Source: Candidatus Micrarchaeota archaeon (GTDB lineage: Archaea; Micrarchaeota; Micrarchaeia; Micrarchaeales; CABMGC01). From it: a stretch of DNA of 64,000 nt. Below are positions 8,876 through 49,815 of this stretch, in pieces. Below the pieces are notes generated by a model. It saw only the letters and a list, made by a program, of their open reading frames with translations, did no database searches and had not been told where the DNA came from. How positions within the stretch are numbered: position 1 is the stretch's first letter; each line of letters begins with the position of its first letter. The stretch spans positions 17,993-81,992 of the forward strand of contig JAJZKQ010000001.1 of the NCBI GenBank assembly GCA_021804095.1. Direction: 5' to 3'. The position numbers were made by a program, and so were the translations under genes.

Positions 8876-9631
8876 TCAGAAGTTCTGTTGTCGTAATGAA
8901 AACGATTTGTCTATCTCATTGTATAACTCTTGCTTGGTAGTGCTTATGTAGGTCAGCGTTACAGCTGTTGCTCTATGGCGAGCAAACTTGGCTGTAAGAA
9001 TGATATTGCCGTTTGTCTGCTTAGAAAAGCTAGTTATTGCATAATGTCTGAGGCTATGAGTAGTAAGCCTGTGTAGGCTTCTAGGAACATTATCATAATT
9101 GGTTTCATCGCTGCTATCATATATTCTGTCTAGCCCTGCTTTCTGAACGTAATGCCTGAACCTGTTTCTAAGATAGTCCTTGCTTAGATACTGCTCATTT
9201 CTTTCGCTGTAATAGCCATCTTCTTTGAAGAACAGATAGCCCATAGATGTTTCTCTCCGCTTCTTGTTTTGCTTTAGGAATTCAAGCGTCAGCCTGAAGA
9301 GAGGTATTGGTAGGATTAAAGTGTCCAATGTGTTTGACTTTTCACTTTTTATAGTAAGTTCTCTTGTTTGGAAGTCAATATTCTTGATATTGAGTCTTAC
9401 TGCTTCTCCTACTCTTATGCCAAGCTGCGCTTGATAGGAAAAGAGCAGTTGAAGTTTCGGGTTGTCTATAATCCTGAAGAACAGCTGCACCTCCTGTTCG
9501 GTAAAACCTTTGTTGAGGCTTCCGTATTTAGGAGGTTGATTCTTTGCAAACTTCTTTAGAAATTGTTTGTGTACAATTTTCTTTATGAACTTCATCTGAT
9601 GATAGGTAAGCTTTGGAAGCACTGAATACAA
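8876..9631 (-). CDS. Tyrosine recombinase / phage-type integrase (XerC/D-like)
   Basis: 251 aa. Catalytic-region motifs LGIRVGEAVRL (Arg), HSLRHYAITS (H-x-x-R), and ARHRATAVTLTYI (His...Tyr). Confidence 0.85.
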   Translation of the reverse strand: MYSVLPKLTYHQMKFIKKIVHKQFLKKFAKNQPPKYGSLNKGFTEQEVQLFFRIIDNPKLQLLFSYQAQLGIRVGEAVRLNIKNIDFQTRELTIKSEKSNTLDTLILPIPLFRLTLEFLKQNKKRRETSMGYLFFKEDGYYSERNEQYLSKDYLRNRFRHYVQKAGLDRIYDSSDETNYDNVPRSLHRLTTHSLRHYAITSFSKQTNGNIILTAKFARHRATAVTLTYISTTKQELYNEIDKSFSLRQQNF

Positions 9632-9726: not shown

Positions 9727-9749
9727 CGACTTACGTCGTGAATTTTGAG

Positions 9750-9824
9750 TGCTCCCGCCGGGATTTGAACCCGGGTTGCGGGGTTGAAAGCCCCACGTCC
9801 TTGGCCGAGCTAGACGACAGGAGC
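9750..9824 (-). tRNA. tRNA-Glu (anticodon UUC)
   Basis: Hand-folded cloverleaf. Acceptor GCUCCUG/CGGGAGC, D stem GUCU/GGAC, anticodon arm UGGGG-CUUUCAA-CCCCG, T arm CCGGG-UUCAAAU-CCCGG. No encoded CCA and no intron. Confidence 0.9.
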
Positions 9825-9981: not shown

Positions 9982-10617
9982 GTGGGTGTCTGTCTGGAAG
10001 GAGCTTTGATATGTATTGAAGGAGTAGACGGAGCTGGTAAGAGTACTCAGACAGAGATGCTTGCTAAAAGGCTGAAAGATTCCAGATCTAAAGTAATAGT
10101 TTACAACTATCCAGATTATTCATCAAGGTATGGGAAGATAATAAAGGATTATCTCTATGGAAAAATAGATATGGAAAACGATGAATTCTTCTTCTTGCAG
10201 ATGCTCGACAAGCAGAAGGACAGAACTAGGATAAGAAACGATATGAATGAAGGAAGCACAGTAATTATGAACAGATATATACACTCGCAGATAGCTTACC
10301 AGTGTGCTTCTGGATTCGATTATGAAAGTGCAAAGAGGATCATCAATCTCTCCAAGATGCCTCTTCCAGACATAGTCGTATACATAGACGTTGATATAGG
10401 AACAGCTTTGAAAAGAAAGAAGATACAGAAGTCAGGCAACCTTGATAGGAATGAAAAATCCGAGGAGTATCTTGAAAAAGTTAGAAATATTTACAAAAAA
10501 CTTGAATCGGAGAAATTTGGATGTGGGAAGTGGCTCAGAGTAGATGGTAACAGAGAGTACTCAGTCATACATGAGGAAATATATATGGAAGTCTGCAACA
10601 TATTAAAAGTATGGTGA
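9982..10617 (+). CDS. tmk: Thymidylate kinase
   Basis: 211 aa (GTG start in the track). P-loop IEGVDGAGKSTQ and a typical dTMP kinase layout. Confidence 0.9.
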   Translation: MGVCLEGALICIEGVDGAGKSTQTEMLAKRLKDSRSKVIVYNYPDYSSRYGKIIKDYLYGKIDMENDEFFFLQMLDKQKDRTRIRNDMNEGSTVIMNRYIHSQIAYQCASGFDYESAKRIINLSKMPLPDIVVYIDVDIGTALKRKKIQKSGNLDRNEKSEEYLEKVRNIYKKLESEKFGCGKWLRVDGNREYSVIHEEIYMEVCNILKVW

Positions 10618-10621
10618 ACGT

Positions 10622-11068
10622 ATGGCGGATAATAGGCCAACTATAGATGAAGTGATGGTTGATATTTCAAGAATGATGGCTAAACGGAGCTCATGCCCTA
10701 AGAGACAGGTTGGGGCAGTTATTACTAAGGGAGGGAGGGTAATAAGCAGCGGTTATGTTGGAGCGCCTGCAGGCATGCCTCATTGTATTGACGAAGGAGT
10801 CGGCTGCCTATTGGATTCTGATGGCAGATGCATAAGGACAGTGCATGCGGAGCAGAATGCCATAGCCGTTGCTGCCAAGAATGGAATATCAACTGATGGG
10901 GGAACACTTTATTCTACAGTCCAGCCTTGTTTCCTATGTGCTAAGAGCATTATTGCAGCAGGAGTCAGGAGGGTAGTATATGTAGAAGAATATAGAAAGG
11001 AAAATCCAGGATCTCTTGACCTCTTCGCTAGCGCAGGTGTTGAAGTTCTGCACTGGAAGGGGAAATAA
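10622..11068 (+). CDS. dCMP deaminase (cytidine/deoxycytidylate deaminase family)
   Basis: 148 aa with zinc motifs HAEQNAI and PCFLCAK. Confidence 0.9.
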   Translation: MADNRPTIDEVMVDISRMMAKRSSCPKRQVGAVITKGGRVISSGYVGAPAGMPHCIDEGVGCLLDSDGRCIRTVHAEQNAIAVAAKNGISTDGGTLYSTVQPCFLCAKSIIAAGVRRVVYVEEYRKENPGSLDLFASAGVEVLHWKGK

Positions 11069-11118
11069 AGGGCATGTGACTTAAGAAGGCTTATTTCTTC
11101 TTAATTTTGCAGAGTTTG

Positions 11119-11703
11119 CTAGATCTGTTTCTCCACTCCTCCGGTTGATACTCTACCTCCTTTCCATTGGCCTTCATAAGCGCGATGTATATCTCCGGCT
11201 ACCTGCATGAAGACTATATTTGCAAATCTTGCGCCAAGCTCAAGCCTGAATGGTTTTCCGCCTAGATTTGCAATGGCGAATGTCAGCTCACCGCTATAGC
11301 CAGGATCAGTCTTTGTAGCCATTAGATATATGCCGCAGCGCTGCAGCGTGCTTCGTGGATATACATGCAGAGAAAGATACATCGGTTTCTCTCCTTCTTC
11401 AATTGTTATCTTTTCTCCTGGAATATTGAATTTCTCAATTGTTTTTACAAGGAGGTATTCGCCTGGAGCCATGATTATATCCTTGTCTCCTTTATCTATG
11501 TCTGCTATTTTTTCCGTGTCTGAGCTCTTGCGGTCTTCAACTCCGAGAAAGCCTTCTCCTATCAGCTTGTATATCTTGCCGGCTCGGATGTCAATGCCTA
11601 CGCCCTCTGGATTTGTAAGCTCTCGCTCATCCATATTCTCTATCAGGTTATACTTTTGATTTAATTCCAATACTTTTAATGTGGATATTATCATTTTATT
11701 CAC
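11119..11703 (-). CDS. dcd: dCTP deaminase / dUTPase-family protein
   Basis: 194 aa. Contains TDPGYSGELTFAIANLGGKPFRLELGARFANIVF, typical of the dCTP deaminase/dUTPase fold. Confidence 0.85.
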   Translation of the reverse strand: MNKMIISTLKVLELNQKYNLIENMDERELTNPEGVGIDIRAGKIYKLIGEGFLGVEDRKSSDTEKIADIDKGDKDIIMAPGEYLLVKTIEKFNIPGEKITIEEGEKPMYLSLHVYPRSTLQRCGIYLMATKTDPGYSGELTFAIANLGGKPFRLELGARFANIVFMQVAGDIHRAYEGQWKGGRVSTGGVEKQI

Positions 11704-13306
11704 TTTTTTTCATGTCGAGCTCTTCCAGTTTTCTGTCTATTCGCTTTTCGCTCTCTATCCTTGGAAGCGCATAGTCATTCATGTCTACCTGCATATACTC
11801 TGCGATTAGAGGATGTTTCTCGAATATTATGTTCCTTAGCCGCTGCGCTACTTTTCTGTAGTCTGGATGTCCTTGTTTGGAAGACCTGAGTTCGGTTATA
11901 TGGAAGGCTTCCCTAAGATTCATTTTTATGTACCATTTCATCCTGAAGCCGCGTGGGACAATATATTGTGCTTCGTTAGGAAGATCGGCATATATGACAT
12001 CATATGCCTCTTTCGCCTTGTCCATGACTTCTTTGAATTCTTTTTCTAAGCCTATCTCAGCAAGCTCGGCAGGCGTGTCAAATCCCATATCCGCAGTCAG
12101 TTCCTGTCTTTCCTGGCTTAGCTGCCTGTGCCTGTGGAGGTCTCTGAAGACTCCGTAGTTTGCACATAGTTCGAATGTATAATATATGTTCTCAAGCGCC
12201 CTGCCCGGCTTATCCCGCCTGTTTCTCCTCTTGGAAAGATAGTCTGAAGCTAGCCGCTTCTTTTCATCAGGAGACATTGCCTTTACTTTGGATAGGAGGG
12301 CATCAAGAGTATCGTCAGAATAGGGATAGAGCATTGCCGCTAGAATCTTATTTTCTCCGTCCGGATCATAATCTACCAATTTTATTGGTTCTGTCTTAGA
12401 TTCTTTGTTTCTTGCTTTATTTCTATGTTTGCTCATCTCTGCCCTTGTATCTATTATATATTCGGAGGGTTTTGACCGTTTTACGAATGCAGGTATTACC
12501 TTTGATAATTCTTCGTGTATATCTTCGGCAAGAAGCTGGGCCTCTTCAAGATTGCTTGAATGGAGCTTTGTAAGAAGATACTCGAATGCCCTTCCATTTC
12601 CATACAGGCCTACATTGGTAAGCCTTCCTGCAGGAAGCAGGTTCTTCAGTATGTCGCATGCCTTGGCTCTTGTCGCGCTCTCATATGCTCGATCTGTGGC
12701 AGCAGGATCTTTAGGCGTTACTGACTTTACATGTGCCTGGACTATGGGAAGCCATTTGGAGTATGAAGAAAAGAGGAGGTCCATTGTTTCTTCGTAGATC
12801 TGCCTGTGTTTTGATGACATTATGGCTTTATTTCTGTACCAGAGATATTTTCCGTCTATTTTTTTATCGAAAAGTATGTACCTTGCAGACTTTTCAAGCG
12901 GTGAAATTCCTATCCTTGAATCGGTAAGAAGGTCTGCTGCAAGGCTGGAGATATTCTCGCATGCAAGATGCACTCCTGCAAGTTCAGCTACTGAATCGTC
13001 CCCATATCCTACAAGAACTCGCTGGTAGAAATCCTCGGCCTTCTTTATCGCCAGTGCGGTGTTGGAGTAATCGGATTGGGATCCTGCGCCTATTACCTCG
13101 GCTATATCTTTGTTCTGAATGAATTCGTCTAGAAGAAGCCTTCTTGCGCCTTTGTCTGATCTGCTATACCTTGAGAATAATGTTCCTTTTATAACTTCAG
13201 GCAGGTTTGTAAGCACGAAAGTGTTCTTCTCCAGGCTTGAAAAATAAGGCTTTATTATCTCCTTCTCATTTTCACTAAGTCTCTCTTTAAAAACAGGCTC
13301 TTCCAC
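11696..13306 (-). CDS. thyX: FAD-dependent thymidylate synthase ThyX, double-length form
   Basis: 536 aa. The ThyX signature RHRxxS appears as DLHRHRQLSQERQ in the C-terminal half. The N-terminal half has a degenerate counterpart (TLFSRYSRSDKG). Overlaps dcd by 8 nt. Confidence 0.85.
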   Translation of the reverse strand: MEEPVFKERLSENEKEIIKPYFSSLEKNTFVLTNLPEVIKGTLFSRYSRSDKGARRLLLDEFIQNKDIAEVIGAGSQSDYSNTALAIKKAEDFYQRVLVGYGDDSVAELAGVHLACENISSLAADLLTDSRIGISPLEKSARYILFDKKIDGKYLWYRNKAIMSSKHRQIYEETMDLLFSSYSKWLPIVQAHVKSVTPKDPAATDRAYESATRAKACDILKNLLPAGRLTNVGLYGNGRAFEYLLTKLHSSNLEEAQLLAEDIHEELSKVIPAFVKRSKPSEYIIDTRAEMSKHRNKARNKESKTEPIKLVDYDPDGENKILAAMLYPYSDDTLDALLSKVKAMSPDEKKRLASDYLSKRRNRRDKPGRALENIYYTFELCANYGVFRDLHRHRQLSQERQELTADMGFDTPAELAEIGLEKEFKEVMDKAKEAYDVIYADLPNEAQYIVPRGFRMKWYIKMNLREAFHITELRSSKQGHPDYRKVAQRLRNIIFEKHPLIAEYMQVDMNDYALPRIESEKRIDRKLEELDMKKSE

Positions 13307-23431: not shown

Positions 23432-24136
23432 ATGTTAAATATCATTAACGGAGTAACCCAGAGAGAGTTACAGGTTTTAGATATGGAAATTTTAATTAGA
23501 AGGCCTGAAGTAGAAAAATTTAGGTTAGGAGTAGACATAGACAACGTTACTGCGAATTCTTCGCAATTATTAGTAGATATACTAAGAAGGAGAGGATTCT
23601 GGGATATTGAAAGGGACCATATAACAAGGAGGCCTTTCCACGAGTCGCCGAGATTTATGGAGCTTGGAATAAGCAGAGAGGTAGTATCAAAGGTATTGGA
23701 TGGTTTATGGGAATATGAATTCGGCCGTATTGAGTTGATGGATAAAAGAATAGGAAGAATAATCGATGGTCTGCGTGCGAAAAATATAAGCATAGATATA
23801 ATAACTACAATGGGTGCAAGAAACCCTTTAATGCGACCGAATCTTGAAGTATGGCTCCAAGGAAAAGGGATAATTTATGATACAGTAAGCTTTGTCAGTG
23901 GCAATTCCGAGAAAGCAGAAGCGGGGCTACACACTATAGTAGATGATGAAGAAGGACTTGCCAAACTTCTGTCAGCAAAGGGAAAGCCTGGAATAATATA
24001 TGATGCTCCATGGAATAGAAAATTTGTTGAAGATCTCAGGCTTGAAGGTCGTCGAAACCCTTTGATTTACACCGTAAGGAACTGGGAAGAGCTTGGGACG
24101 GTAGTGGAAGAATTGAATAAGGCTTTTAGAAGCTAA
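23432..24136 (+). CDS. HAD-like hydrolase, possibly 5'(3')-deoxyribonucleotidase (NT5C-like)
   Basis: 234 aa. The Asp motif LGVDIDNV fits HAD motif I. Neighbouring genes act in nucleotide metabolism. An alternative start lies at 23483. Confidence 0.45.
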   Translation: MLNIINGVTQRELQVLDMEILIRRPEVEKFRLGVDIDNVTANSSQLLVDILRRRGFWDIERDHITRRPFHESPRFMELGISREVVSKVLDGLWEYEFGRIELMDKRIGRIIDGLRAKNISIDIITTMGARNPLMRPNLEVWLQGKGIIYDTVSFVSGNSEKAEAGLHTIVDDEEGLAKLLSAKGKPGIIYDAPWNRKFVEDLRLEGRRNPLIYTVRNWEELGTVVEELNKAFRS

Positions 24137-33470: not shown

Positions 33471-34037
33471 ATGAAATTGACCATATTAGATGATTCACCA
33501 GGCGTGTTGAGGTTCAGGATAGATGAAACCAGTGTTAATTTTGTAAATGCGATAAGGAGAATAGCAACCAACAGCATAAAATCCATTGCAATAGACTCGA
33601 TAACGTTCTATGAAAATTCCAGTGCCATATTTGATGAATATATAGCGCACAGGATTGGGCTTGTTCCAATACTTACACCTGAAGGCTTTGGTGAGAAGGA
33701 TGAGGTAATTTTCAAGCTTGATGCTGAAGGCCCCGGCACAATCTATTCTGAAAAGCTTGAAAGCAATGACAAATCAGTCAAAGTTGCAAATGGAAAGATA
33801 CCGATAATTAAGCTTGCTGGAGGGCAGAAATTAAGATTGGAAGGAAAGGCCATAATGGGCTCGGGATCTTCTAGCGCAAAGTTCCAGCCTGGCCTCGTAA
33901 CATACAAGCAGCTGACCGATAGCTCCTTTGAGTTTTATATTGAATCTTTCGGGCAGATGCCTGCTCTGGAGATAATAGAGAAGACGCTAAGTATAATAAC
34001 CAACAATATCAAAGAGGTACACAAAGAACTTAAGTGA
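33471..34037 (+). CDS. rpoD: DNA-directed RNA polymerase subunit D (short form)
   Basis: 188 aa. FVNAIRRIATNSIKSIAIDSITFYENSSAIFDEYIAHRIGLVPI. It heads the conserved rpoD-L18e-L13-S9-rpoN cluster. Confidence 0.8.
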   Translation: MKLTILDDSPGVLRFRIDETSVNFVNAIRRIATNSIKSIAIDSITFYENSSAIFDEYIAHRIGLVPILTPEGFGEKDEVIFKLDAEGPGTIYSEKLESNDKSVKVANGKIPIIKLAGGQKLRLEGKAIMGSGSSSAKFQPGLVTYKQLTDSSFEFYIESFGQMPALEIIEKTLSIITNNIKEVHKELK

Positions 34038-34041
34038 AGAC

Positions 34042-34128
34042 GCGGGGGTGGCAGAGCCTGGTCAAATGCGCTGGCTTGAGGGGTCAGTAGCTTTAGTGCT
34101 TGCGCGAGTTCGAATCTCGTCCCCCGCA
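34042..34128 (+). tRNA. tRNA-Leu (anticodon GAG), long variable arm
   Basis: Acceptor GCGGGGG/CCCCCGC, anticodon arm CUGGC-UUGAGGG-GUCAG, T arm GCGAG-UUCGAAU-CUCGU, with about a 17-nt variable arm. No intron. Confidence 0.85.
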
Positions 34129-35524: not shown

Positions 35525-35725
35525 ATGATGATACCAGTAAGATGTTTCTCATGCGGTCAGGTAATAGCTGACAAGTGGGAGGAGTACGACAGAAGAGTGA
35601 ATAAAGGAAAGGAAGATCCCAAAAAAGTCATCGCAGACCTTGGCATAAAGAGATACTGCTGCAGCAGAATGCTCATAGGAAACATCGAGCTTATTGATGA
35701 GATAATAAACTACGGAAGGAAGTAA
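35525..35725 (+). CDS. rpoN: DNA-directed RNA polymerase subunit N (RPB10)
   Basis: 66 aa. [13 protein letters not shown]...YCCSRML zinc motif. Confidence 0.9.
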
Positions 35726-35821
35726 TGCTTTGGATAATGCTGTGCCAGGTTATAATTTTAGGCGGTATGGAGCGGCATATAGGAAAGTATATATAAGGAT
35801 AAAGACAAATGTTTTAAGCGC

Positions 35822-35913
35822 GGGGTCGTCTGCTAGTCTGGTCAGGCTCTGTGCTTAGGGAGCACATGACCCGAGTTCAAATGGCATGATGCCTGAAAGT
35901 CTCGGCGACCCCG
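35822..35913 (+). tRNA. tRNA with 18-nt insertion in the T-loop; anticodon loop UUAGGGA (formal anticodon AGG, Pro family; isotype provisional)
   Basis: Acceptor GGGGUCG/CGACCCC, anticodon arm UGUGC-UUAGGGA-GCACA. The T stem CCGAG (35871-75) + UUCAAAU is followed by GGCATGATGCCTGAAAGT (35883-35900) before the pairing strand CUCGG (35901-05). D stem is only 3 bp (U10-U25 mismatch). Confidence 0.65.
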
Positions 35914-35930
35914 AATTAAGGAATGGTTTT

Positions 35931-36557
35931 ATGGCAACACAAGAGGAACAGAATTCGTTAATAGATCAATCAACATATCTGGATGTAGGAATACATATAG
36001 GCACAAAGGTAAAGACTCCGGGAATGAAGAGATTCATATATAAAGTAAGGGAAGACAGCCTCTACCTTCTTGATCTTAATACCATAGACAATAGGATAAG
36101 GATAGCCGCAAAGATGCTTGCAAGATATGAGCCAAAGGACATAGTAGTAACAGCATCGAGGATATATTCGGTTTCTGCAGCTACAAAATTTGCAGAGATA
36201 GTAGGTGCAAAGCTTATGACAGGCAGAGTAATGCCTGGCGTATTCACAAACCCTAACAGGAGCGACTTTTCCGAGCCTGAGATACTTTTGATAAGCGATA
36301 ATAGAAACGAGAGGCAGGCAGTTAAAGAAGCAAACAAGACAAATATACCGATCATAGCTTTGTGCGACACAGATAACTGGATGAAGTTTGTAGACCTCGT
36401 TATACCTTGCAACAACAAGGGAAGAAGGTCTCTTGCGCTTATCTACTATCTTCTTTCAAGGGAATTCATGAAGGAGAAAGGATTAATAAAGACCAATGAA
36501 GAATTCCAATATAAGATCTCGGATTTCGAAGCGAAAGTAGAGATGAAGGCAAAATAG
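35931..36557 (+). CDS. rps2: Ribosomal protein S2
   Basis: I moved the start to ATG 35931 (MATQEEQNSL...), because the track start at 35886 lies inside the tRNA. Contains YLDVGIHIGTK...PIIALCDTD. Confidence 0.9.
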   Translation: MATQEEQNSLIDQSTYLDVGIHIGTKVKTPGMKRFIYKVREDSLYLLDLNTIDNRIRIAAKMLARYEPKDIVVTASRIYSVSAATKFAEIVGAKLMTGRVMPGVFTNPNRSDFSEPEILLISDNRNERQAVKEANKTNIPIIALCDTDNWMKFVDLVIPCNNKGRRSLALIYYLLSREFMKEKGLIKTNEEFQYKISDFEAKVEMKAK

Positions 36558-37462: not shown

Positions 37463-37567
37463 GGGCTTGTAGCGCAACGGCAGCGCGCCTGCATGGCATG
37501 CAGGAGGTTGCGGGTTCAAAAAAAACCTTCCCGTATTGAGAGGTTTATGGAATTCCCGCCAAGTCCA
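37463..37567 (+). tRNA. tRNA-Ala (anticodon GGC) with 33-nt insertion in the T-loop
   Basis: Acceptor GGGCUUG/CAAGUCC with the G3:U70 Ala identity pair. D arm GCGC-AACGGCA-GCGC, anticodon arm CCUGC-AUGGCAU-GCAGG. T stem GCGGG (37510-14) + UUCAAA, then about 33 nt (37521-37553) before U-CCCGC (37554-59). Confidence 0.75.
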
Positions 37568-48654: not shown

Positions 48655-49815
48655 TCAGGGTTGGATCCAGTCTATTTCATAATATTCGGCTTTGCTGTCT
48701 TTTAGTTTTATCTGCTTGATTTTATAGTAGGTTACTGCCGTTTCCCGATCGGCTATTGCAATAACTAGTTCTATTTTTAGGCGCTTGGCTTCCTTTATTG
48801 CACTTGCAAGTTCTGCGCCTCCTATAAATTCTTCTTCGCCGAAGGAGAGCATGGCATATCTTGGAGGATTGTCGTTTGGATTTTCTGAATCTCCAGATCT
48901 TCGATGGTAAAGTATGAAGTCTATTTCTGTCTTTCTGCTGTTTTTTTTGCCAGGAACTGCTAGGATAAACGTCTTCCTTACTGAATGGGCTACCCTTATT
49001 GCCCTCGCCCATTCAGATATTAGTAGGCGCGAGTTTCTTGGAAATACATGTACCACATGCCTTGAGTGCGCCCACTCCCCATTTTCTGCCTTGAATGGCT
49101 TTGCTCCTGGGAAATATATCCTAAAGTGTGTTCCAAACTTGAAGCCCGTCTTTACCACATAGCCATTCTTCCTCCAGTCTTTGTATACAGAATATAATAG
49201 ACCAAATTGGCCATGTCTGCTTTTTAGTTCTCCTATTAGCCTCTTTTTGTTTATATTGGTAAGTCTAAGCTGCCCGTTTTCAATTAAGAACAGTGTTTCA
49301 TATACGTCAAGCTTGTTTAGGTTTCCTCTGTCTGAGGCTTTGTAGGAACCGTATTGTCCGAACCAGAATGACTCGTAGATCTCTTTTGCCTTTTCTGTGC
49401 GGTTTATGACAGTCACAAGATCGGTAATAAAGAAGGTCCCTGAAAAGTGGTACCCGTGGAGGGAGAGTTTTTTTGAAGGATACTCCTTTATAGGATTGGA
49501 ATGGGGCCTTTTGTGCTTGGTCTCCGGTGTCTTTATTATAAGCCCCCTGTCTCTCCAGTCTTTATAAGTAAGGTATTTCGCCATGAACTTCTTTTCTTTC
49601 CAGAATTTTCCGGCAATCTCGTTGAATGATAATTTTGAACCTTTGTAATATATCTCCGCATTTCTCACATCTGCAAGATATAACGCTTCGAATATTGAGA
49701 GCTGTGTAGGATTTCCTTTCTTAGGTTTTCCTAGAAATCCTCTTTCCAGTATATCTTTTGTAGATTGGTCTTCTGCGGTTATTTTTTTCCTTGAATGGTA
49801 ATTTAGGACTATCAT
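48655..49815 (-). CDS. endA: tRNA-splicing endonuclease, multi-unit single polypeptide
   Basis: 386 aa. One complete catalytic unit (YSVYKDWRKNGYVVKTGFKFGTHFRIY...HSRHVVHV...RVAHSVRKTFILAV). There is also an N-terminal partial unit (LSIFEALYLA...YLTYKDWRDRGLIIKT) and a C-terminal extra segment (YAMLSFGEEEFIGGAELASAIKEAKRLKIELVIAIAD). Confidence 0.85.
   Translation of the reverse strand: MIVLNYHSRKKITAEDQSTKDILERGFLGKPKKGNPTQLSIFEALYLADVRNAEIYYKGSKLSFNEIAGKFWKEKKFMAKYLTYKDWRDRGLIIKTPETKHKRPHSNPIKEYPSKKLSLHGYHFSGTFFITDLVTVINRTEKAKEIYESFWFGQYGSYKASDRGNLNKLDVYETLFLIENGQLRLTNINKKRLIGELKSRHGQFGLLYSVYKDWRKNGYVVKTGFKFGTHFRIYFPGAKPFKAENGEWAHSRHVVHVFPRNSRLLISEWARAIRVAHSVRKTFILAVPGKKNSRKTEIDFILYHRRSGDSENPNDNPPRYAMLSFGEEEFIGGAELASAIKEAKRLKIELVIAIADRETAVTYYKIKQIKLKDSKAEYYEIDWIQP

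Follow-up and report, generated by a model that had tools for sequence, protein, structure and literature searches.

An interrupted tRNA-like sequence lies directly upstream of the ribosomal protein S2 gene in the 64,000-nucleotide stretch of Micrarchaeota (DPANN) DNA analysed here, which we call the window. It raises two questions: whether a sequence with an insertion in its T-loop is a functional tRNA gene, and how its anticodon, which begins with an A at position 34, would read the proline codons. Judged by its own sequence and by comparison with its relatives, the region 35822-35913 (+) is very probably a functional, independently promoted tRNA-Pro gene, whose transcript would be spliced between tRNA positions 59 and 60.

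The unspliced gene was missed by ARAGORN, both by default and with the intron (-i) and pseudogene (-ps) options; the intron model of this program covers anticodon-loop introns only. Rfam also missed it, at the gathering threshold and at E<=10 on 35700-36000, where not even a partial match appeared, and the 5' 60 nt of the gene gave no Rfam match even at E<=10. Once the 18 nt were deleted, ARAGORN called tRNA-Pro(agg), which matches the claim of an earlier note on this DNA that the cloverleaf closes only when the insertion is removed. Three other tRNAs were called by ARAGORN in the window.

The gene reads GGGGTCG TC TGCT AGTCTGGTCA GGCT C TGTGC TTAGGGA GCACA TGAC CCGAG TTCAAA, followed by the intron TGGCATGATGCCTGAAAG and then by T CTCGG CGACCCC G. 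The 5' exon (35822-35881, +) comprises tRNA positions 1-59, with the acceptor strand, the D arm, the anticodon arm and the variable loop, and its last part, up to 35881, is the T-stem 5' strand followed by UUCAAA. The 3' exon (35900-35913, +) carries U60, the T-stem 3' strand CUCGG, the acceptor 3' strand CGACCCC and the discriminator G73. On the spliced sequence ARAGORN placed the anticodon AGG (A34 G35 G36) at 35857-35859 (+), with A34 at 35857 and G37 at 35860, in agreement with the anticodon loop UUAGGGA and the formal proline anticodon read before. An NGG anticodon, G37 and a standard cloverleaf make the gene a tRNA-Pro, and AGG with G37 is invariant in the 76 orthologous genes described below.

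The D-stem contains a U10.U25 mismatch, which had already been noticed together with the discriminator G at 35913, and in addition a U13.G22 pair. Position 10/25 is U.U in 38 and G.U in 2 of the 40 distinct ortholog sequences. The discriminator is G in 49 and A in 27 of the 76 orthologs, which is atypical for a single tRNA identity. Base -1 (window 35821) is complementary to discriminator 73 (35913) in 48 of the 76 orthologs (C-1/G73 in 37, U-1/A73 in 10 and U-1/G73 in 1), and because of this ARAGORN draws an acceptor stem of 8 bp. This complementarity may have to do with processing of the 5' end, or it may be due to common descent alone.

Upstream of the gene there is a TATA-box-like promoter element (AAAGTATATATAAGG) at 35785-35799 (+), roughly between -37 and -23 relative to the mature 5' end. 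Upstream of the 76 orthologs, an A/T-rich box (-33 to -25) is conserved together with an A (purine) at -36, and this box would represent an archaeal TATA/BRE promoter.

The strands of archaeal bulge-helix-bulge (BHB) motifs, as known from canonical 37/38 introns, consist from the 5' end of a 4-nt central helix, a 3-nt bulge that is cut after its second base, and an outer helix. A motif of this kind had been suspected around 35876-35905, and it could be read from the sequence at 35876-35900 (+), with the T-stem (35871-75 with 35901-05) as the outer helix. Its 5' side (35876-35886, +) is made of the H strand UUCA at 35876-79 (tRNA positions 54-57), the bulge AAU at 35880-82, in which the cut would fall between A and U, and the inner strand GGCA at 35883-86. 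Its 3' side (35890-35900, +) consists of UGCC at 35890-93, which follows a UGA loop, the H' strand UGAA at 35894-97 and the bulge AGU at 35898-35900, to be cut between G and U. There is thus a 4-bp helix UUCA/UGAA between two 3-nt bulges (AAU and AGU) on opposite strands. The strict form has h and h' helices of at least 2 bp; here h is the 5-bp T-stem and h' is GGCA/UGCC, with 4 bp flush with the bulges. With a perfect UUCA/UGAA helix between them, the motif is therefore a strict hBHBh'. The hairpin inside the intron had been described as GGCAT/ATGCC with 5 bp, and this has to be corrected to 4 bp, GGCA/UGCC with the UGA loop.

The motif also decides where the intron lies. Because a T flanks both ends, deleting 35883-35900, as first proposed, or 35882-35899 gives the identical mature sequence. 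The BHB cleavage rule selects the second placement, and we set the 18-nt intron at 35882-35899 (+) in the T-loop. A non-canonical intron at or near 59/60 had been anticipated, and the cleavage sites of the strict motif fall exactly between 59 and 60. With all the defining sequence-level features present, the predicted intron belongs to the archaeal BHB class.

Folding energies did not help in this matter. With ViennaRNA, the precursor with cloverleaf and BHB had -31.6 kcal/mol against -40 kcal/mol for the minimum-energy fold, which is a rod, and the spliced tRNA had -26.3 kcal/mol as a cloverleaf against -33.6 kcal/mol as the minimum-energy rod. Thermodynamic folding recovered neither the cloverleaf nor the central BHB helix, and our case is therefore built on comparison with relatives.

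A scan of genomes with an S2 alignment gave 80 Micrarchaeota loci, whose S2 proteins are 67-99% identical to that of the window; the nearest locus (L001) has 99% identity. The tRNA-Pro gene lies directly upstream of rps2 in 75 of the 80 loci, and fragments of it were seen at two contig ends. As for the remaining loci, rpoN abuts rps2 in L010 and L059, and one locus is rearranged. L010 and L059 belong to higher-GC Micrarchaeota genomes, with no tRNA between rpoN and rps2 (L010 3980-4001; L059 3975-4001). The 75 loci and the window form a set of 76 orthologous genes with 40 distinct sequences.

Introns are distributed unevenly over this set. Only the 59/60 intron is present in 54 genes, 18 genes carry introns at both 53/54 and 59/60, three have the 53/54 intron only and one (L021) has none, so that the 59/60 intron occurs in 72 and the 53/54 intron in 21 of the 76 genes. 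The intronless gene has 74 nt and the T-loop TTCAAAT and scores 52.7 bits with the Rfam tRNA model, and so displays the mature T-loop UUCAAAU that is predicted for the spliced product. The exon junction is the same in this gene and in L069, L072 and L074, which are without the 59/60 intron. The length of the 72 introns at 59/60 ranges from 11 to 33 nt, and their sequences are hypervariable and mutually unrelated. In every one of them the H' strand (-6 to -3) pairs with UUCA, as UGAA (62), UGAG (7) or UGGA (3), and is followed by two bulge bases and then by U60. The strict hBHBh' form is found in 42 of the 72 and the rest are relaxed, including a class of 19 introns with 13 nt; the inner helix occurs with 29 distinct end-pair combinations.

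The exons behave quite differently, with a mean identity of 94% across the orthologs. Compensatory double changes were found at eight stem pairs, and in the acceptor, anticodon and T stems every cell across the orthologs is paired (100%). None of 500 shuffles reached the observed values of pairing and covariation, and no slid register came near them. The call of the spliced form as tRNA-Pro by ARAGORN, the intronless ortholog at 52.7 bits and the stem covariation all indicate that a canonical cloverleaf results once the 18 nt are excised at the bulges.

Such a locus might also be a decaying tRNA pseudogene, disabled by the 18-nt insertion and by a mutation to A34. This would agree with the rejection by standard detectors, with the weak D-stem and with reviews in which A34 is 'forbidden' in archaea. 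However, the exons are near-invariant over 76 species while the insertion varies freely, the stem changes are compensatory, the promoter box is conserved, and the BHB geometry is kept in 72 of 72 introns and A34 in 76 of 76 orthologs. We consider decay highly improbable; the pseudogene alternative, which had been raised before, is rejected by exon conservation, covariation and the conserved promoter element.

The gene rps2 (35931-36557, +; Pfam Ribosomal_S2) starts 17 nt after tRNA-Pro. As the earlier note had stated, a longer S2 ORF overlaps the tRNA: it begins at an ATG at 35886 inside the intron and runs in frame into rps2. The region could on this ground be read as an N-terminal coding extension of rps2 (peptide MMPESLGDPELRNGF) with no RNA gene at all, the more so as public models such as P0001 (222 aa) use an equivalent start. 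But most of the 120 S2 homologs among the matches listed, which are labelled Micrarchaeota or Micrarchaeia, are about 204 aa long and start at the downstream ATG, and the nucleotide conservation follows RNA pairing. The intron lengths of the orthologs are not multiples of three, so there is no conserved reading frame and a coding role is excluded. The probability of this explanation is practically negligible, and we keep to a tRNA-Pro gene followed by an rps2 of usual length.

The public S2 models P0001, P0037, P0041 and P0111 have 220-225 aa, compared with about 204 aa. P0001 ('MPESLCDPE...') and P0041 start inside tRNA-Pro and translate the tRNA 3' exon, and P0037 and P0111 have N-terminal extensions too. 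These extended models look mis-annotated because the split tRNA was undetected. Over the whole set, ARAGORN made 4 tRNA-Pro(agg) calls against 76 orthologous genes, and Rfam missed tRNA-Pro both in the window and in all five loci with an intron on which it was run. It means that standard tools miss this gene, and therefore some public MAG annotations are without tRNA-Pro at this place and have a false rps2 N-terminus.

The gene order around the locus is rpoD, tRNA-Leu(GAG), L18e, L13, S9, rpoN, tRNA-Pro, rps2, a hypothetical protein, an LSm protein and a second tRNA. The tRNA-Leu(GAG) gene starts 5 nt past the end of the rpoD ORF (34037; window 34037-34042). The second tRNA, 1.5 kb from tRNA-Pro, is a tRNA-Ala(GGC) with G3:U70 at 37463-37567 (+), and it has a 33-nt intron at 59/60 (37521-37553). 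ARAGORN missed this gene; it was recognised by a partial Rfam tRNA match at 37470-37534, corresponding to model positions 8-63, and by a custom scan for T-arms that close around an insertion compatible with a BHB. The scan gave the five tRNA genes of the window and two poor chance matches, and therefore two of five tRNA genes in the window are split at 59/60. The BHB of tRNA-Ala is relaxed, with an A.A mismatch beside the 5' bulge. A 59/60 intron of 20-41 nt was present in all 18 tRNA-Ala orthologs found. At the tRNA-Ala position of two other loci there are uninterrupted 75-nt tRNA genes with 51.3 bits (L074 5203-5277; L069 5210-5284); if these are tRNA-Ala, species differ in the presence of the tRNA-Ala intron as well. 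Beyond the H' requirement, the introns of tRNA-Pro and tRNA-Ala have no sequence in common, so we see no sign of intron transposition between both genes.

An enzyme for such introns is encoded 13 kb from tRNA-Pro. The ORF at 48658-49815 (-) encodes a three-unit (epsilon2-type) tRNA splicing endonuclease of 386 aa with Pfam domains tRNA_int_endo_N and tRNA_int_endo. It matches PDB 4FZ2, the epsilon2 EndA of Ca. Micrarchaeum acidiphilum ARMAN-2, with E=1e-143 and 58% identity (residues 3-386 collinear to 4-387), so the alphaN-alpha-betaC units of the ARMAN-2 enzyme lie collinear in a single chain of about 390 aa. The catalytic Y/H/K triad is kept in FRIYFPG, EWAHSRH and SVRKTF, and the ARMAN-specific loop reads GSYKASDR, compared with GTYKVSEH in ARMAN-2, with the lysine kept. 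In ARMAN-2 EndA numbering these residues are Y236/H251/K282 and loop Lys161 (PMC3488258), and the loop lysine confers broad substrate specificity (PMC3488258; PMC12397907). ARMAN-2 EndA cuts strict and relaxed BHB motifs in vitro, including the 59/60 intron of pre-tRNA-Cys (PMC3239211). By this analogy, the product of 48658-49815, a genome-encoded endonuclease of the kind that acts at non-canonical positions, is expected to be the enzyme that cuts both the Pro and the Ala introns.

It is conceivable in principle that the 18 nt are retained in a mature tRNA with an enlarged T-loop, where the extra hairpin sticks out from the elbow. This is hard to reconcile with the orthologs, which have 0-33 extra nt of unrelated sequence and all have exact splice-site geometry; moreover, if U54-A57 paired with the intron, the elbow between T-loop and D-loop would be lost. 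The window encodes the cognate endonuclease, and a 59/60 intron is cut in vitro by the ARMAN-2 enzyme (PMC3239211). We therefore give retention very little probability and prefer excision of the intron.

The free drift of the 59/60 intron and its patchy presence among close relatives fit introns that are gained and lost almost neutrally and are tolerated because the enzyme is permissive. In the literature it has also been proposed that introns protect tRNA genes from integrating elements. In the window, a phage-integrase-family ORF (8879-9631, -) directly adjoins tRNA-Glu(UUC) (9749-9824, -). It may mark an integrated mobile element at a tRNA gene, and its place beside tRNA-Glu bears on the idea that introns shield tRNA genes from integration.

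The observed gene structure, conservation, BHB geometry and enzyme allow us to propose a processing pathway, in which cleavage, ligation and decoding follow by analogy with in vitro work on ARMAN-2. The primary transcript would contain the 18-nt intron between T-loop positions 59 and 60. In the precursor, U54-A57 would pair with UGAA near the 3' end of the intron and form the 4-bp central helix of the strict BHB, flanked by the T-stem and the intron hairpin. The homodimeric epsilon2 endonuclease (48658-49815) would cut after the second base of each 3-nt bulge, so that the cuts fall after A59 and before U60 and the 18-mer is released. An RNA ligase would then join the exons of 60 and 14 nt; in other archaea RtcB is the ligase. 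By Pfam, no RtcB-type ligase, ProRS or Trm5 was found among the window ORFs of at least 100 aa. The predicted product is a 74-nt tRNA with the normal T-loop UUCAAAU, to which CCA would be added afterwards. From the anticodon AGG with G37, charging with proline and best reading of CCU are predicted.

The reading of the other proline codons depends on A34. Reviews and a 2026 survey describe archaea as having neither ANN tRNAs nor A34 deaminases, and the survey reports three ANN cases among 10,517 archaeal tRNAs; the three archaeal ANN tRNAs in GtRNAdb are not named in the supplements of this 2026 preprint. ARMAN-4/-5 have tRNA-Pro(AGG) and tRNA-Leu(AAG), and the ARMAN-2 tRNA-Pro with both T-loop introns is GGG (Fujishima et al. 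2011, PMC3239211). The A34 had thus been rightly called unusual for archaea, yet none of the 76 orthologs lacks it. The five bases UAGGG (positions 33-37) are the same in 76 of 76 orthologs with 40 distinct sequences, while the bases at 32 and 38 differ between orthologs and the adjoining stem covaries; therefore A34 is selected and is not an error. As encoded, A34 is fixed across the clade, in at least 76 species-level genomes, in a syntenic archaeal tRNA-Pro. It is encoded at 35857 in a four-fold box (Pro), a feature by which I34-tRNAs are recognised. The tRNA-Leu of this lineage keeps G34 (GAG), with 68 ARAGORN calls over the window and the 80 loci. Metagenomes were also scanned for the anticodon arm of the tRNA-Pro gene carrying G, C or T in place of A34; the 7 matches included no tRNA, which is a weak negative, as the scan had no A34 positive control.

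In the genes of these loci, codon usage is in keeping with a functional A34. The ratio CCC/(CCC+CCU) has values of 0.28 (window) and 0.38 (loci), lower than for any other Y-ending pair. In 73 of 75 loci it falls short of the corresponding ratio pooled over Ser, Thr and Ala (means 0.36 vs 0.55), in a comparison that is not phylogenetically independent, as the loci share genes and ancestry. Many genomes also avoid CCC on other grounds, and the signal from codon usage is confounded. Of the Pro codons, 15-18% are still CCC. The two genomes without the syntenic tRNA-Pro (L010 and L059) show no Pro-specific CCC depression.

A scan of the window and the 80 loci, about 0.7 Mb of Micrarchaeota DNA in all, with the motif [HC]AE...PCxxC found no TadA-like ORF. 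It gave a single ORF with a CDA fold, at 10622-11068 in the window, which scores 124 bits as ComEB/dCMP-deaminase-like against 25 bits as TadA. We rejected it as a TadA candidate: it resembles dCMP deaminase/ComEB, and its neighbours are thymidylate kinase, a dCTP-deaminase-like gene and ThyX. These four genes form a dTTP-synthesis cluster at 9982-13306. Its ThyX is unusually long, with 536 aa; two stretches match Thy1, and the best-scoring one covers residues 309-499, which leaves the larger part of the N-terminal region without an assignment. Elsewhere in the window, Rfam gave a CRISPR-DR47 match at 23582-23613 (+) inside an ORF, which is probably due to chance (27.8 bits against the gathering threshold of 39, E=0.65).

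The somewhat favoured explanation is that A34 stays adenosine, or is modified without deamination, and reads mainly CCU, with the other codons read by UGG and CGG tRNA-Pro or through a weak A:C pair. The sole CDA-fold ORF of ComEB/dCMP-deaminase type, with no TadA-like ORF in the window and the 80 loci, is consistent with it, as are the specific depletion of CCC and the reviews, which report no A34 deaminase in archaea. Against it, the search covered about 0.7 Mb of Micrarchaeota DNA, CCC remains at 15-18% of the Pro codons, and unmodified ANN tRNAs have been described as near-absent in prokaryotes (review), suggesting counter-selection.

Deamination of A34 to inosine by an unrecognised archaeal enzyme would instead give a eukaryote-like IGG that reads CCU, CCC and CCA. 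The strict conservation of A34 (76/76) and the continued use of CCC codons speak for this, and the G34 isoacceptor may be absent, by analogy with ARMAN-4/-5. A resemblance to eukaryotic decoding was noted by Fujishima et al. (PMC3239211). On the other side, the window and the 80 loci contain no candidate enzyme, inosine-34 has never been reported in archaea according to the reviews and the survey, and the preference for CCU fits plain A34 at least equally well. We regard inosine as rather unlikely and adenosine as the preferred state of position 34.

Both possibilities would be of consequence. If the inosine reading were true, it would be the first wobble inosine in Archaea, with eukaryote-like decoding of proline; if an unmodified ANN tRNA is stably kept, it would contradict the textbook view of archaea without ANN anticodons. 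With its clade-wide A34 and its bias of CCU over CCC, this lineage lends itself to the questions why A34 is usually avoided and whether archaea can make wobble inosine. As for the introns, one orthologous gene can be followed over 76 species through the gain, loss and drift of two T-arm introns, with BHB geometry as the sole visible constraint. The substrate genes and a broad-specificity endonuclease in one 64-kb window also make a clean data set for the co-evolution of intron and endonuclease.

When compared with known systems, the eukaryotic tRNA-Pro(AGG), which is converted to IGG by ADAT2/3, has the same encoded anticodon with G37, but no ADAT/TadA homolog was found here in the window and the 80 loci. 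To our knowledge, eukaryotic tRNA introns occur only at 37/38. The BHB introns of Crenarchaeota/Thermoproteales are similar to those described here in lying outside 37/38, including the T-arm, in having strict and relaxed motifs, and in being cut by a broad-specificity enzyme that uses a loop lysine. In contrast, their EndA is of the (alpha-beta)2 type, with a Crenarchaea-specific loop that was acquired independently (PMC3488258, PMC12397907).

ARMAN-4/-5 (Parvarchaeota) share an A34 in an archaeal tRNA-Pro of a four-fold box (PMC3239211). They differ in belonging to another phylum and in having a single-unit endonuclease of 177 aa, with few of their tRNA genes disrupted (PMC3239211), and their tRNA-Leu is AAG, whereas that of the present lineage is GAG.

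The nearest relatives of this system are in ARMAN-2. Its pre-tRNA-Cys has an intron at the same 59/60 position and provides the experimental precedent for the enzyme family. It is a different tRNA with a relaxed (hBH) motif, unlike the strict one of the window intron, and 19 orthologs of the window gene carry 13-nt introns of the relaxed type. The ARMAN-2 pre-tRNA-Pro has introns at 53/54 and 59/60 (PMC3239211). It agrees with the window gene in phylum, amino-acid identity, the 59/60 T-loop site, the strict hBHBh' and the endonuclease type, and its 53/54 intron is also found in the 18 double-intron orthologs. The window gene differs in having the 59/60 intron only and, compared by published description, in the anticodon AGG versus GGG of ARMAN-2. 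Introns in the T-loop and a tRNA-Pro with A34 are therefore already known, both having been described in ARMAN archaea (PMC3239211), and what is less expected here is the invariance of A34 in all 76 orthologs together with the depletion of CCC.
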